In this document: piece after piece, positions 1 through 57,270 of the stretch | Layout of the letters: every line of letters starts with the position of its first letter | How positions within the stretch are numbered: the stretch's first letter is position 1 | Assembly (NCBI GenBank): GCA_964019335.1 | Contig: OZ025665.1 | Coordinates: 310,001 to 374,000 of the forward strand | Direction of reading: 5' to 3' | Length of the DNA: 64,000 nt | Source: Diplonema japonicum | Lineage: Eukaryota; Protista; Euglenozoa: Diplonemea | Translations under genes and position numbers: made by a program | Notes under the pieces: model-generated | The model's database searches: none | What the model was told of the DNA's origin: nothing | Seen by the model: only the letters and a program-made list of their open reading frames with translations

Positions 1-1
1 G

Positions 2-1118
2 GTGGGCCTGCGGCTCCCGGCGGCATCCGTCCATGCGGTACTCCGGGCCTCGGGCGACGGCTGCATGGTCAGGACGACCGAGCGGCGCGGGGGGTACACC
101 TACGTGCCCATCGTAGCGGAGGGGAGGGCGGAGGCCTTCCAGCTGGCGAAGGCACTGGGCGGGTTGTCCCTGGGGGTGGCCCATCGCAAGGGTTGGACCG
201 TGAGGTGCCTGCCGGAGACGGAGCAGCGTCTGAGGGAGGCCCTCGCCAAGCAGAGGACAAAGCGACGGTACCTGCTCACCGGAGCCCCGCTGTCTGTTAC
301 CAGGGCAGCCTTCGACGGGATGATGGACCACATCGGTTGGAAGCCGTCGTCCATCATCCGACGCTCTGACACGGCGTTCCAGGGCACGAGGCAACTCGTG
401 TTCTTCATCGTCGCCGACGCCCCGCCCCCCAAGGCCAGGACATGGCTCTTCGGCTCTCGTCTCGTTCGACTGCACGACGCGGAGGACCACCCGAGCGTCA
501 CGCTCCCGCCCCGCACCAACAAGAAGGCTCCACCCGCGGCTCGGACGCCGGTTGCGGCAACCACGGCCCAGACGCCGACGCCGGCCCCTGGCCCCACGGT
601 GCAGTCCACAGGGCTGCCGAGCACCAATCCGGTCATCTCCACCGAGCTCTGTTGCCCCTCCGCCACTTGGCACTGTGACTCCGGTCTCCTCTGCGGCTTC
701 CCCGACCACGACAACTCCCCGTGACTCCCAGAAGAAGAATCCCGCACCGGAACCTGAGGTCCCGGCGCTCCTCGCGCTGATCCAGTCGATGCAGGCGACC
801 ATCGACGGTCTGCAGGCGACGGTCCGCGACCTCCAGGAGAAGATGGCAGCGTCACTTGGCGCGCCGGCGTCATCTGCAGACGGAGCTGGGCGGACGGCAG
901 TTGCTGGGAAGGGCAAGGGCGGCAAGGCTGGGTCCAAGGCAGGGACGAAGGGGCACCAGGCGCAGGGCGTAAGCACGCCAGGCCCCTACCCGACATCGAC
1001 GGAGCAAGGGGGCGGAAGGGGACGCGCCCAGTCGCTGGCTGGCGACTCTGCTTCCCCCAACGGGGCCGGCCGTGGACGGGCAGCCTCTGTGGGCCCGGCC
1101 CCCGCCCCTGCCAATTGA
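2..1118 (+). CDS. Retrotransposon ORF1 (partial; apparent frameshift near 600-700 joining ORFs 2..724 and 552..1118; C-terminal coiled coil)
   Basis: Lies directly upstream of APE-RT in the same GC-rich element; heptad-like LIQSMQATIDGLQATVRDLQEKM. Confidence 0.6.
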
Positions 1119-1214
1119 AGGGGTCCCGCTGAGCAGGGGGGGCGTCAGATCGACGACCACGCCCCCTCTCCTGGTCTCCCGCGCATACAGCCGAGGAGAC
1201 ACCTTCCACATCAC

Positions 1215-4200
1215 TTGTACGACGTCCTCCCTTCCTTGATCCCTTCCTTACTTGAACGGATGTCGGCCAGGGACCTGCTGGGGCTGCTTGGGCTGGTTGA
1301 GACGAACCCCGGTCCACCTAAGAAGCTCCCACCCCCGAAGCCGAAGGGACTCAGGGTCCTGTCCTGGAACTGCAACGGTCTTGCCGCCAAGTGGTCAACC
1401 GTGTCCTACCACGCTGTCCTACTGACGCTGGATATCATTATGATCCAGGAGACACACCTTAGGGAGGGGCATGAGACACCATACCTGCCTGGATACACGT
1501 CCTACAGGAGGGACCGCACAACACCGGTGACGGACGGCTCTGCGACGAGAGGCGGTGGTGTCATCACGTATGTCCGTGACTGCCTTGCCTCGGAGGAAGC
1601 TCCTTTCGTACTCCCTGAAGGTGACAGTGTCACCGAGCGATTAGACGTGAGGATCTCCTGTGTGAAGCGCGTCCCGGTCACCCTCTCCAACGTGTACCTC
1701 ACGCCTGTGAGTATAAGCAGAGGGACAAGGGACCCCGAGTACCTACGGCCGGGCAGCCTACCTGTGGGGAAGAACACGATCGTTGCTGGCGACTTCAACG
1801 CACACCACAGCTCTTGGGATGCCAAGGTGACAACGCCCAACGAAAGGGGGAACGTGGTCAGGGACTGGCTTGACACCCACGGCTACACGGTCTACAACAA
1901 CCGTGACGAGCCGACGCGGGACTCACCGCCATGCGTTCTGGACCTGGTGGTGGGACGTTGTGCGGAACTGGAGCCGAGGACGTTGGGGACGTGGGGCTCT
2001 GATCACAGCCCGGTTTCCTTCCGCCTGCCGCTTGAGGACGCCTACTGCTCGGAGCGACCCTGCCCTACCTGGAACTTCAAAAAGGCCAGGTGGGACGACT
2101 TCACCGCGGCCGCCGCTGCCCTTCTGACCAAGATCGACACGAAGGCCCACATTGACTCCTTCACGAAGGAGGTAACAGAGGCTCTTCTGCATGCAGCTGT
2201 TCCGCTTTGCGGAGTGCGACGAGGCCCGACCCCCTGGTGGACGGCCGAACTCGAAGACGCCTTCGAAGAACGGAACGCCCTGCGGGATCGCTTCCTCAAG
2301 TCGGCTGAGACTGAGGACGACAGCGTGGCGGCGGTCTACAAGGCGAAGGTCAAGGAGGTAAACCAACTCATGACCGAGTCGAAGCGCGCGGCCTGGGGTG
2401 AGATGGCGGCTGACCTCAGTCGGAGCAAGGACCTCGGGTCTGCGTTTAGGGCGGTGAAGAAGCTGGACGGCAGACACCGCAGACCGCACCTTCCCATTCT
2501 CGAGGGGAGGTTCGTGACGGACAAGGCGAAAGCCGACCGCCTGGGGGCTCACTTCGGCAAGCTCTACGGCCAGGGTGGTGATGGGGACGCGGTGGACGTA
2601 GCTCCTTCGACGAACGTGCTTGGGTGCCACGCCTTTACGGTGTATGATCTCACCCGCGGTCTGGGAAGGATGAAGACACGCAGTGCAGCGGGTGATGATG
2701 GCATCTTCGCGGAGATGCTTCTCCACCTCGACCAACCCTCGCTCGGGGTTCTACTTCTGCTCCTCAATCGCTCATGGCAGGCGGGGATCGTGCCGGGTGC
2801 CTGGAAGAAGGGGGTGATTGTTCCAGTGGCGAAGGCAGGGAAGGACGCCACGTTGCTTGCATCGTACCGTCCCATATGTCTCACTAGCTGTCTTTGTAAG
2901 CTGCTTGAGAGGATGATAGAGGAGAGGCTTACCTTTCTCCTAGACTCTAGCGCGTCGGGCGTTGAGGGTCTCCACGACAGCCAGGCTGGCTTCAGGAGGG
3001 GCCGCTCCACGGAGGAGCAGGTGGCGTCCCTGACCGGGTGCCTGTCGAGGAACAAAGACAGTCGGCGTCTGTCGGCTGCCCTGCTGTTTGACTTCTCATC
3101 TGCGTTTGACCTGGTTCAGCACGAAGCTCTCTTGGGCATGATGCGGAGGAAAGGGATCCCTGAGCCCTTCGTCGAATGGACGCGCTCCTTCCTCTGCGGT
3201 CGTACGGCGGCGGTCACGGTGGGTCGTTCGCGAGGGTCGACGACGAAGGTGAGGAGAGGGGTGCCCCAAGGGTCTGTGCTGGGACCCGTCCTTTACACCA
3301 TCTACGTCGACGAGCTAGCCAGGTTGCTGGTTGGGATGGCGGACCTGTCGGTTCTTTATGCCGACGATGTTGCGGTGGTGGTCTCAGCCGGGCAGGGCGA
3401 CCTGGCTGGTCTTGAGCGAGGGGCCCAGGCTGTGATGGACGCGGTTGAGGGCTGGTGTGGGAGACGGGGCATGCTGCTGAGCTCCAGCAAGTCGCAGGCA
3501 GTGTGCGTTCCCTATCAGAAGCGGCTTAATGTCTACTTCTCTTCGTCGCGTGTCCCGCTTTGCCCGGGGGCCTTCCAGGACCCTGTCCTTAATCTTGGGG
3601 TTGGGGCCTGTGGGACCTTGTCTGGCGTCCGTGAGCTGTCTGGCTTTCGGGTCGTGGAGGCGGGTGGCAAACGGTCCTTCGACATTCCCGCCGCCATCCG
3701 GAGGTCCGACATTGGTTACATGGCGGCTCGCCCCTTGCCTCTGTGTGGGTCGGCGAAGTATCTTGGGGTCACTGTAGACTCTGGGCTCACGTTTGACGAG
3801 CATGCGGGGGATGTCCTGAGGCGCGCTGACAAGAGGCTGAGGGTACTAAGGCTCCTGTCGGGCACGACCTGGGGGTGCAAGAAGGCCACGCTCCGATCTC
3901 TGTACCTCACGTACGTTCTCCCGCTACTCCGGTACTGCATGGGTGTTTACTTTGCCAGGCTCAGGGACAGCAGGGTGGAGGAGCTTGTTGGGCTCCACCA
4001 GAGAGCGGCGGTGCTGATCTCGGGTTGTTGGCACGGCTCGGGCACGGCGAAGGTTGTTGCTGAGGCAGGTCTGCTACCCCTCCGACAGATGGCTGAGGGA
4101 GCTGCGGCGGTGTTGACGGCGAAGTCGTTCTGCTGGAGGACCTCCCCGGTTCACCGCGAGGTCCTTGAGCAGAAGCGGATGGCTGCGTGCGGGTATCCTT

Positions 4201-5397
4201 GCGCTACGACGCTGCGGACTGCAGGGGTGGACGACGCAGGAAGGCTTCAGGAAGTACGACACCTTCGAGCTACTGACTGCCTCGCCCAAAGTAGCACCGT
4301 GGCACGCGTTCCTGGTGGAGTTCAGAACTGCCCTTCCCGGCAGGGTCACGCGTTCGTCGCCGGACGTGGATAAGCGGAAGGCGGCCGTGGAGGCTCTGGC
4401 TGCCCTTCCACCGGGTATCCATGCCTATACGGATGGTTCTGTCGTACGGGACCGCCAGAGGTGGAGGGGCGGTGCCGGGGTCTTCTTGCAGCTCCCCCGC
4501 CCCCACGAACCCGTGTCCGAGAGCTTCGGCGTCAGCAATTTCTGCTCTTCCTTTCGGGCGGAGGGTCTGGCTGTCAAGGTGGCTCTGGACATGGTGGCCG
4601 CGCTCCGGAGCGAGCACACCACGTTGGCAGACAGCCGGCTGTCGATCTGTACCGACTCGCTCTCTCTCCTTGATCAGCTGAGGGCAGGTCCTTCGCGGCA
4701 GAGGGAGAGGCTCGACCACGAGACCTGGGAACTGCTGGTGGCCGCGGCACGTGCACAAGGTGCACCAGTAATTCTCCAGTTTGTGCCGTCCCACTGCGGG
4801 GTTCCTGGCAACGAGGCGGCAGACAGGCTGGCCGGGGAGGGCACGAAGCGCGAGCTGACTCGCCCCTCTCTCGACTACAGATCGGTCAGGGCCCTGGTCC
4901 GTCGCCAGATTCAGCAGAGGTCTGCGGTCATTGTCGGGGAGGTGGCCCCGAGGTACGCGAGGGCCACGGGGCTCCGAGCGGCGTGCTTCCCCCAGTCCCT
5001 CCCCAGGCTAGCGGAGACGGTCATCTCGCGGCTGAGGGTAGGGCACTCCGCTCTCTTCTTCGGCTTCCTGCAGGCGGCTGGACCGAACAGGAAGAAGGCT
5101 GAGCTCAGCTGTCCAGCGTGTGGAGCTCGGATGTCCAGGGAGCACGTTGTTGGGGGGTGCGCTGTGGTTGGACGGGGTTCGCTCGACGCTCCCAATGGAC
5201 GCCCCTCGCTGGTGGAGTGCCTGTCAAAACGCGTGACGCAGGTATTCACCCTCATCGCCGACTCTGGCTTGCTTGACTGGACCAGATCCGGGGTCTTCAC
5301 GTCGCCGTCTGCGGCAACGGCAGGTACCGCTGCCCCTTCGTTCATCCCGCCGGCTGTCTCCCTTGACGCCGGCCCTGCGGCCCCCGTGTTGCGCTGA
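1215..5397 (+). CDS. Retrotransposon ORF2 polyprotein (2A-like peptide, AP endonuclease, reverse transcriptase, RNase H, Zn knuckle); frameshift near 4150-4260
   Basis: ORF 1215..4373 has APE and RT; overlapping ORF 4165..5397 has RNase H and CCHC; LVETNPGP at 1293-1316. Confidence 0.9.
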
Positions 5398-5516
5398 AGT
5401 GAGTAGGGTGAGATCAACATTTCAATTCTTTTAGTGCTTACGTTCCCTTCCCCTCTCTTCCACTCCCTCTCATCCTTTTCTTTATCATCATCCGGCACCG
5501 CAATCGCAGGACGTAG

Positions 5517-5554
<38 letters not shown>

Positions 5555-5744
5555 AACAGAAAAAAGTGAACCAAAAAGTACTAGTGAACCCTCTCCCCCT
5601 CCCCCAGTGTTTCCCATTATTACCCTGTCGTGCACCCCAACTTCTGTCTTCACCTTTCCCCGCCCCTTCACACACATCCCCCCGTATCATTTTCCTTTGT
5701 TTTGATTTTCTAAGGCTCCGCCGCCCAACAAAGCTGGCTGAAGG

Positions 5745-5938
5745 GGATGCCTCCGTGCCAGTGTGCCGCTCGTGAGGGCGAGCACGGACGAGGTACCCCA
5801 CTCCTCAAAAACCCGGAGGTTCGCCCGAAGGGTGCTGGCTTGGGAAGCGGGCTGGAGAGCTGCCGGGGTCACGGAGGTGGGCGAAGTCGCGAACACTGGA
5901 GCCCACGAACCGGCCCCACCTCCGTCCTCGGTACGTAT
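5745..5938 (-). ncRNA. Structured ncRNA candidate (U1 snRNA-like 5' end AUACGUACC), divergent from tRNA
   Basis: GC-rich island with perfect 11-bp stem (5871-5881/5915-5925), C(UUCG)G loop, GUUUUUG Sm-like site about 128 nt from the putative 5' end; strand and identity uncertain. Confidence 0.4.
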
Positions 5939-6103
5939 GGATATTTTAGCGGAAGTTTCAAGGTTATCTCATTCCTTTCCCCCTTTCGTTAGATACAGGG
6001 AGACCCTTGGTCCACCTGTTCTGTCCCCCCCCCAGCCTTTGCTTCGCATGTCAGTGGTTCATTTATTATTATTATTATTATTATTATTAAAAAAAATTGC
6101 AAT

Positions 6104-6185
6104 GCGGACGTATCCAAGTGGTTACGGAGGTGCACTCGAAATGCATTGGGCTCTGCCCGCGCAGGTTCAAATCCTGCCGTCCGCG
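6104..6185 (+). tRNA. tRNA-Ser(CGA)
   Basis: Acceptor GCGGACG/CGTCCGC, anticodon arm GTGCA-CTCGAAA-TGCAT, long variable arm, T-loop GGTTCAAATCC. Confidence 0.95.
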
Positions 6186-6307
6186 AGACTTTTAACCACA
6201 CGAAAAAAGAATTTCACAATGATAGGACCACCAAAAAAAGGAGAAAGAAAAGAATACAGAATCTGTAGAAACAGACATCACAAAAATGCTCTAGAAAGAA
6301 GCATTAT

Positions 6308-16110: not shown

Positions 16111-16231
16111 AGAAAGAAAAAAAAAAAAAAAAAACAAAGAGATTCACTATGAACGGGGGGGAGAAGTAAACAACTCACCAACGTAAATATAAAGATAAAA
16201 AAAGAAGAAGAAGAAGAAGAACAAAAAAAGG

Positions 16232-16271
16232 TGTCTTTGAAGGGAACCTGCAGTATGTGACAGGATCGCCT
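16232..16271. repeat. 40-nt intergenic hairpin element, copy 1
   Basis: TGTCTTTGAAGGGAACCTGCAGTATGTGACAGGATCGCCT, identical to 57098-57137. Confidence 0.9.
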
Positions 16272-16516
16272 AAAAAAAAAAAAAAAGGAGAAAATTCATA
16301 GATTCGGTTGTACAGGGGGAAGAAAAAAAAAAAGAGAAACAAAAAAAGAGACCACGTTGGATTTTTGTCTCATTGAAAGTCATATTTATTTTCCTCTTTC
16401 TCTTTTTTTAAAAAAAGATTCAGCGGGTCTGCCAGAGAGGGACGTGTCCGGAGAGAAGGTAGCTTTCGACGCTTGTCGAAGACACCATAATGTCTAAGTC
16501 TAATACAATCACGTTC

Positions 16517-56863: not shown

Positions 56864-57097
56864 TGTGCCTGTGTTTTTGTTGTTTTCGTTTTTTCTTTTG
56901 TTGGTCGTATAAGTCGAGATGATGAAGGTACTTTCTTGAGACTTAAGAAGAAAATAAAAGAAGAGAAAAGAAGAGTTTTGTTTCTTTTTTTTTTTTTTTG
57001 GTTCGCTTATTAAGAGAGGAGAGGGGAGAAAAGAAATGCAGGAAAAGGGAGGAATATGTAAGCCACAGAAAGAAGAAGGAAAAGAAAAAAAAAAAGA

Positions 57098-57137
57098 TGT
57101 CTTTGAAGGGAACCTGCAGTATGTGACAGGATCGCCT
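57098..57137. repeat. 40-nt intergenic hairpin element, copy 2
   Basis: Identical to 16232-16271. Confidence 0.9.
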
Positions 57138-57270
57138 TTAAAAAAAAAAAATTGTAAATGAAAGGGGGGAAAGGGGGGGAAAAAACAAGAACAGAAAAAA
57201 AGAAAGAAAAAAATCTTAAAAAAAAAAAAAAAAAATGGGTTTCTTGGAAAAGATACCCGTGTCCAAATAT

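Follow-up and report, generated by a model that had tools for sequence, protein, structure and literature searches.

How the second open reading frame (ORF2) of a long interspersed nuclear element (LINE) is translated from an RNA that carries two ORFs is described as an open question in the field (PMC3708506, PMC3894237). We consider this question at one junction in Diplonema japonicum, in a 64,000-nucleotide (nt) stretch of contig OZ025665.1 (assembly GCA_964019335.1, positions 310,001 to 374,000), hereafter the window; all positions below are window positions, and all features of the element lie on the plus strand. Positions 1-5552 hold the 3' 5.5 kb of a LINE: ORF1, a TGA stop, and then ORF2 with APE endonuclease, reverse transcriptase (RT), and RNase H domains. 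The UGA of ORF1 (1116-1118, context AAU UGA AGG) is in frame with ORF2, and the frame stays open from 1119 for 1084 codons, spanning APE and RT. Between the stop and the APE domain lie a spacer of 47 codons free of AUG (1119-1259), open in the ORF2 frame and with a coding-type substitution pattern, a single ATG (1260-1262), and a 2A-like peptide (1260-1316). The junction is a 200-nt cassette for which readthrough, reinitiation, and skipping predict different, directly testable outcomes. Comparison with relatives points to readthrough of the UGA as the probable route into ORF2.

The closest proteins are P0001 (ORF2, 78% identical) and P0017 (ORF1, 64%), both from the D. japonicum transcriptome, where they were called as separate ORFs in one Trinity gene; P0017 (951 amino acids [aa], a complete ORF) and P0001 together represent a sister family. 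A related lineage is represented by X13 record 2, a contig of depth 13 that is RNA only by guess. It covers 1030-1345 in one piece at 88% identity, with 38 differences and no gap; positions are given for 29 of the 38, and the other 9, placed by inference within ~30 nt of the ends of the stretch, are uncounted. A further sequence, X12, covers 1269-1337 only.

Among the 29 of 38 placed differences in X13, none falls at 1111-1132, and two other contigs (X1 record 4 and X3 record 14) span the TGA unchanged. The C-terminus of P0017, GRSASMGPSN, aligns with the end of the window ORF1, GRAASVGPAPAPAN, and finishes on the same final Asn. Judged by these comparisons, the TGA at 1116 is a real shared stop and not decay. 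The preliminary description of this DNA had suggested looking in other copies for a sense codon at this position, or for stops and indels behind it; the comparison instead found TGA, frame, and spacer length kept.

An open stretch of 47 codons is unremarkable by itself, being seen in 31% of shuffles. The way the spacer has changed is informative. In X13, 9 of 13 spacer changes are at third positions (4.3 expected, p=0.0058), where the expectation comes from placing the same change types at random on the same bases; 7 of 13 are silent in the ORF2 frame (3.9 expected, p=0.0495), against silent counts of 1 and 3 when either of the remaining frames is read. The ratio of replacement to silent change (pN/pS) is 0.29 in the spacer (Fisher p=0.02), near the 0.24 of the ORF1 tail. 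All 5 changes in 1119-1199 are silent (p=0.012, for a split chosen after the data were seen), and these five stop-proximal changes lie 40-60 codons before the skip site, farther out than the 18-30 residues that a 2A is reported to need (PMC3894237). The sister family can be viewed over 1228-1257, through a 30-letter loose end with differences counted by hand: its 12 differences comprise 6 first, 1 second, and 5 third positions (second-position sparing, p=0.012). Combined across X13 and the sister family, the two stronger tests reach p=0.0007 and the two weaker ones p=0.04. The sole spacer indel listed measures 6 nt, is in frame, and belongs to a minor 5'-truncated copy.

The stop is common to the window family and X13, so the simplest history is that these changes accumulated while it was already present. 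The window spacer offers no ATG besides ATG1260, so a coding signal upstream of it suggests that ribosomes enter further upstream; and because this signal comes within 22 nt of the stop on both sides, there is no room for an intron. Translation of the spacer has modest but consistent comparative support. The feature of programmed readthrough, a conserved in-frame stop with coding constraint beyond it, is found here in a modest sample (13 + 12 changes).

A coding-type spacer upstream of the only ATG favors entry at the stop, most simply by readthrough. Most ribosomes would stop at the UGA and yield ORF1p, while a minority would read through it and translate a 65-codon linker. The NPGP of the 2A-like peptide would then release the chain, at least in part, between its last Gly and Pro, so that the minority products would be ORF1p with a 66-residue tail and a separate APE-RT-RNase H protein that begins at Pro. 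Such a scheme would follow gammaretroviral gag-pol readthrough, with StopGo replacing the protease. The 65-codon leader falls within the 40-80 aa that separate LINE 2As from the ORF2 start (PMC3708506), whereas a start at ATG1260 gives 18. Readthrough joined to at least partial skipping is a serious possibility that falls somewhat short of an even chance. The complete two-step switch, with no conventional stimulator, a plain stop context, an active StopGo with Leu at position 12, a site presumed to be polar, and both extended ORF1p and free ORF2p, is a tentative proposal and less probable again. Readthrough, reinitiation, and trans-splicing need not exclude each other.

The second step depends on the 2A-like peptide, MSARDLLGLLGLVETNPG followed by Pro, which has Leu at the D12 position. 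Its motif (DLLGLLGLVETNPG followed by Pro) occupies 1272-1316, and the predicted skip lies between Gly 1311-1313 and Pro 1314-1316. With the ATG as position 1 of a 19-residue register, F2A numbering gives M1 S2 A3 R4 D5 L6 L7 G8 L9 L10 G11 L12 V13 E14 T15 N16 P17 G18 P19, of which D5, L6, L7, L9, G11, V13, E14, N16, P17, G18, and P19 match F2A. Set beside the account in PMC12846837, the peptide agrees with the FDLLKL helix at 4 of 6 places and with the core everywhere except position 12. The peptide combines (V/I)ExNPGP with G11 and an upstream leucine cluster in register, and [VI]ExNPGP occurs once in 127,996 six-frame window positions. Across 1296-1313 (V13-G18 of the VETNPGP core), all 5 listed sister changes and all 3 X13 changes are silent; this silent-only pattern indicates that the 2A-like peptide is under selection. 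Natural variants with C, T, N, or V at position 12 are reported to be ~90% active (PMC12846837). Provided that it is translated, we lean toward the view that the motif skips.

Within the same peptide, the 30 nt at 1268-1297 are identical letter for letter in the window and sister families and unchanged in X13. They form ten mostly fourfold-degenerate 2A codons, and an RNA signal, gene conversion, or chance could account for them; by our estimate, one identical run of 30 nt in 4 kb at ~80% identity is not unexpected. 2A-like motifs vary among related proteins. Residues 1-125 of P0002 hold three tandem 2A-like motifs, the first and second of which are separated by a partial second copy of the APE start; P0002 and P0003, from D. 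ambulator, are 43% identical to the window protein. In the LINE proteins P0025, P0026, P0027, and P0035, a hydrophobic stretch, a noncanonical NPGP motif, and a proline run stand directly before APE, as they do here.

A number of observations weigh against readthrough followed by skipping. Two sources underlie the spacer statistics: a single contig of depth 13 (X13 record 2) and 30 letters of the sister family. Within X13, 1200-1259 is without signal (2 silent and 6 replacement changes, pN/pS 1.0), and sister amino-acid identity in 1228-1257 is 6 of 10 (p=0.14), with LIPTLLGRM against LIPSLLERM. The sister stop is matched by position, at the protein level. UGA ends 15 of the 25 long minus-strand host frames in the window (some of which may end in introns), one of these host stops has the same UGA AGGG context, and UGA-A is not known to be a leaky context. 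As for the peptide, Leu at position 12 departs from the core (D/G/C/N)(V/I)ExNPGP and falls outside the D/G/C/N/T/V set of PMC12846837, according to which D12 hydrogen-bonds to rRNA and D12A abolishes F2A activity. In a recent survey (bioRxiv 10.64898/2026.09.24.754024), no D12 substitution in P2A or F2A is reported to reach the threshold, and 139 of 1969 single-deviation peptides were highly active; Leu is not named among the functional variants in the portion covered.

The RNA adds to this side of the balance. The preliminary description had cast a GC-rich hairpin behind the stop as a stimulator of readthrough. The hairpin is present and folds as it said: arms GGGGGCGT (1138-1145) and ACGCCCCC (1159-1166) extend to full pairing of 1135-1145 with 1159-1169, giving 11 predicted pairs and a 13-nt loop at 1135-1169. 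It begins 16-19 nt behind the stop, a distance in keeping with known stimulators, which are described as starting 8 or more nucleotides after the stop (PMC13517186). The predicted stability is ordinary, with z -0.66 for 1116-1200 and z -1.71 (14 of 200 shuffles) for a segment drawn around the hairpin; 6 of 152 nearby 46-nt segments are as stable, the hairpin itself among the six. In X13 the core pairs are retained, one G-C as G-U, and the loop-closing pair and two outer pairs are lost. A variant common in X3 and X7 likewise disrupts the loop-closing pair; pair probability in X13 runs from 0.01 to 1.0, depending on the segment folded. The covariation check yielded no compensatory change in the X13 hairpin. 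With ordinary stability, broken outer pairs, and no compensation, a function of the hairpin is unsupported, and it is at most a candidate stimulator; stop, frame, and coding-type spacer support entry at the stop. A long-range stem (1121-1135 with 1261-1276) was rejected: its pair probability is 0 to 0.45 by segment and ~0 in X13, and the arm has at least 12 better pairing partners elsewhere in the element. In Rfam only the tRNA passes, with no SECIS, internal ribosome entry site (IRES), or ribozyme match.

The alternative that survives best accepts readthrough and drops effective skipping. The D12L motif would then act as a 2A that is weak, stalls, or attenuates, and a Gag-Pol-like fusion of ORF1p and ORF2p would result. 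All the coding evidence in the spacer fits such a fusion, as does the sensitivity of known 2As to changes at D12. Several LINE 2As are reported to be inactive (PMC3708506), and most tested retrotransposon 2A-like peptides lowered protein level, including 59% of ORF2p cases (bioRxiv 10.64898/2026.06.17.732966). The noncanonical NPGP motifs before APE in the unrelated elements P0025, P0026, P0027, and P0035 point the same way. Against it stand the exact register of V, E, N, P, G, and P and of the leucines before them, with silent changes only, and the ~90% activity of rare natural variants at position 12, Val included. We consider a fusion without release unlikely, while giving it real weight.

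Termination at the UGA followed by a restart at ATG1260, the kind of reinitiation proposed for L1 and SART1 (PMC5972666), would make the spacer an inter-ORF region with an inherited frame. This ATG is the only one in the window spacer and is kept in all three lineages (window, X13, and P0001), which counts for reinitiation and against readthrough. Sister similarity also jumps at 1258, from 12 differences in the preceding 30 nt to 2 in the next 40. Reinitiation leaves unexplained the third-position bias upstream of the ATG, which arose with the stop in place, and it would put an 18-residue 2A at the very start of ORF2. In X13, moreover, an out-of-frame ATG at 1159 opens a frame that continues past 1260, which is awkward for scanning, and in P0002 a Met at a similar place sits inside an internal 2A-like repeat, so this Met need not be a start. 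Reinitiation at ATG1260 is a minor contender.

A somewhat smaller share of probability goes to termination at the UGA followed by a new chain from a non-AUG codon just behind it, through AUG-independent reinitiation or an intergenic IRES, with linker and 2A never joined to ORF1p. The coding-type spacer fits this route equally well, and sequence cannot tell it from readthrough. An intergenic IRES with a non-AUG start has been raised for LINEs (PMC3894237), and the 65-codon leader resembles the N-terminal leaders of single-ORF 2A LINEs (PMC3708506). Such a restart has no need of an in-frame stop, yet the stop is in frame; Rfam gave no match to an IRES or other family, and X13 departs from the window at the in-frame near-cognate codons of 1215 and 1236.

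Spliced-leader trans-splicing inside the spacer could release a separate ORF2 mRNA starting at ATG1260. A spliced leader is carried by essentially all mRNAs of Diplonema papillatum (PMC10161547), and the spacer offers pyrimidine-rich tracts (1161-1180 and 1225-1253) and AG dinucleotides at 1189, 1194, and 1197. A silent change in X13 removes the best acceptor, CAG at 1188-1190, and leaves the AG dinucleotides at 1194 and 1197; X13, which is RNA by guess alone, crosses the junction with neither joint nor loose end, and trans-splicing leaves the codon-phase pattern unexplained. We regard this route as improbable. Two further readings of the TGA, as a nonsense mutation in a single-ORF element that has decayed or as a selenocysteine codon, are very improbable: the window copy does have two frame breaks, but the stop is common to several lineages and the break near 630 is absent in 4 of 4 sequencing runs, so that decay is largely refuted by the X13 and P0017 comparison, and no SECIS family was matched in 1-6300 (Rfam).

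Readthrough with 2A-like release has partial precedents. In Moloney murine leukemia virus (MoMLV), gag-pol uses a UAG, an 8-nt spacer, and a proven pseudoknot, and separation is by protease; the LINE junction has a UGA, no supported RNA structure, and a separation predicted to occur by StopGo. The two would have in common one frame, a leaky stop, and an enzyme that a minority of ribosomes make and that is afterward split from the structural protein (PMC13517186, PMC5009743). Cardioviruses, which combine StopGo with a -1 frameshift, likewise use two serial recoding events to set a ratio of structural to enzymatic products; they are RNA viruses in which StopGo comes first, the reverse order, and the other event is a frameshift and not readthrough (PMC5009743).

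Among retrotransposons, Ingi, L1Tc, and several CR1 elements are known to have a 2A in front of APE, and most of them lack ORF1 (PMC3708506, PMC3894237). The window LINE resembles Ingi and L1Tc in its 2A-like peptide (of predicted activity) directly before APE, in APE, RT, and RNase H within one protein, and in its poly(A) tail. It differs in that Ingi is described without ORF1 (PMC3708506), whereas this LINE has a long ORF1 in frame with ORF2, and Leu for Asp in the core. The exceptions that have ORF1 plus 2A (CR1-26_BF, CR1-53_BF, and CR1-1_LG) are not described with readthrough in the portions covered of PMC3708506 and PMC3894237. Compared by features, the element would act as a 2A LINE of Ingi type to which a leaky stop in the manner of gag-pol has been added; we do not file it in Ingi, as it lacks the single-ORF feature. 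For Paramecium tetraurelia Group 3 elements, consensus sequences led to the suggestion that ORF2 needs readthrough of the ORF1 stop; these form a separate ciliate clade, and PMC5405496 mentions, as far as its account was covered, neither a 2A nor a test of selection on the linker. Proteins of Cordylochernes scorpioides also have a 2A-like peptide between ORF1p and ORF2p domains; they are annotated as single proteins, and no intervening stop is reported in the portion covered of bioRxiv 10.64898/2026.06.17.732966.

The preliminary description had called the arrangement unknown from LINEs. This holds for the combination of a leaky ORF1 stop with 2A-like release, which we did not find in print, and less so for its parts: readthrough was proposed for Paramecium Group 3, and a 2A before APE is well known. 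Our literature search found no LINE with readthrough and then a 2A, most subscription journals and Repbase lying outside its coverage; at the level of titles and listings it found no description of diplonemid LINE junctions, and at the level of listings nothing on point for readthrough in trypanosomes or diplonemids. If the reading is right, the element would be a LINE with a gag-pol-like strategy in which StopGo serves as separator. It would suggest a role for the 40-80-residue leaders before LINE 2As, widen the 2A core to Leu at position 12, and connect two-ORF LINEs in evolution with Ingi elements, which have a single ORF and bear a 2A; it would also be a natural counterpart of engineered leaky-stop/2A reporters (PMC13517186).

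Wider searches yielded little on the junction. Metagenome and genome scans returned 82 distant loci (20-43% identity), 6 of them with a 2A-like motif; none of these 6 has a long in-frame ORF before the preceding stop, and they are uninformative on this junction. A search with spacer plus 2A at near lengths gave no match. A profile-free search across the junction gave 15 weak matches, to the low-complexity ORF1 tail or the APE start, and no credible ORF1-ORF2 fusion relative, which is weak evidence.

The remainder of the element is laid out as follows. The 3' part of ORF1 occupies 2-1118, with its start upstream of the window, and is 64-66% identical to P0017. It is frameshifted near 630 in this assembly only: 4 of 4 sequencing runs compared have 2 more letters there, and with them the upstream ORF1 frame runs on into the one that ends at 1116. 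The earlier statement that ORF1 ends at TGA 1116 in the ORF2 frame is thus true of the family and not of this assembly copy. The positions given in the preliminary description were otherwise all correct (TGA 1116-1118, hairpin arms, ATG 1260-1262, motif, and open frame from 1119), and the 2A-like motif before APE, with Leu in place of the usual D, is as it reported. The APE domain spans 1359-2006 (PF03372, E 8.7e-14; PF14529, E 6.4e-12) and the RT domain 2856-3542 (PF00078, E 8.2e-32). The second frame break of the window copy is a change in ORF2 near 4177-4196 relative to P0001, seen by tblastn in the assembly copy. Past it, the RNase H domain lies at 4420-4845 (PF00075, E 7.5e-10; tblastn against P0001). 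The ORF2 stop (TGA), a short pyrimidine-rich 3' untranslated region, and a poly(A) tail (5517-5552) make up 5395-5552.

ORF1 matched no Pfam family. Its assignment as an RNA recognition motif (RRM) protein was rejected, atlas leads to RRM clusters scoring 0.77-0.78, under the 0.9 threshold, and so was a fold from single-sequence prediction (pLDDT, the predicted confidence score, 33, unusable). At 951 aa, P0017 is long for an ORF1; ahead of its conserved domain, residues 110-360 form a long Ala/Glu/Lys-rich repeat region, likely a coiled coil. No second copy of the LINE was found within the 64-kb window. Loose ends at 1107, 1148, and 1237 in X3 and X7 have AT-rich or T-run flanks and resemble 5'-truncated insertions that start inside the junction.

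A tRNA-Ser(CGA) gene (6103-6186) follows 550 nt behind the LINE poly(A). The intervening gap, from 5553 on, ends in (ATT)n plus an A run (~6061-6096), which resembles the tail of another short element stacked before the tRNA; no other copy of such an element was found in the window. Across 6300-63500, the long host frames are all on the minus strand, as in euglenozoan polycistronic clusters, and the LINE and tRNA face the opposite way. The window also contains a direct repeat pair of 85 nt (16201-16285 and 57069-57151) whose members are 91% identical.

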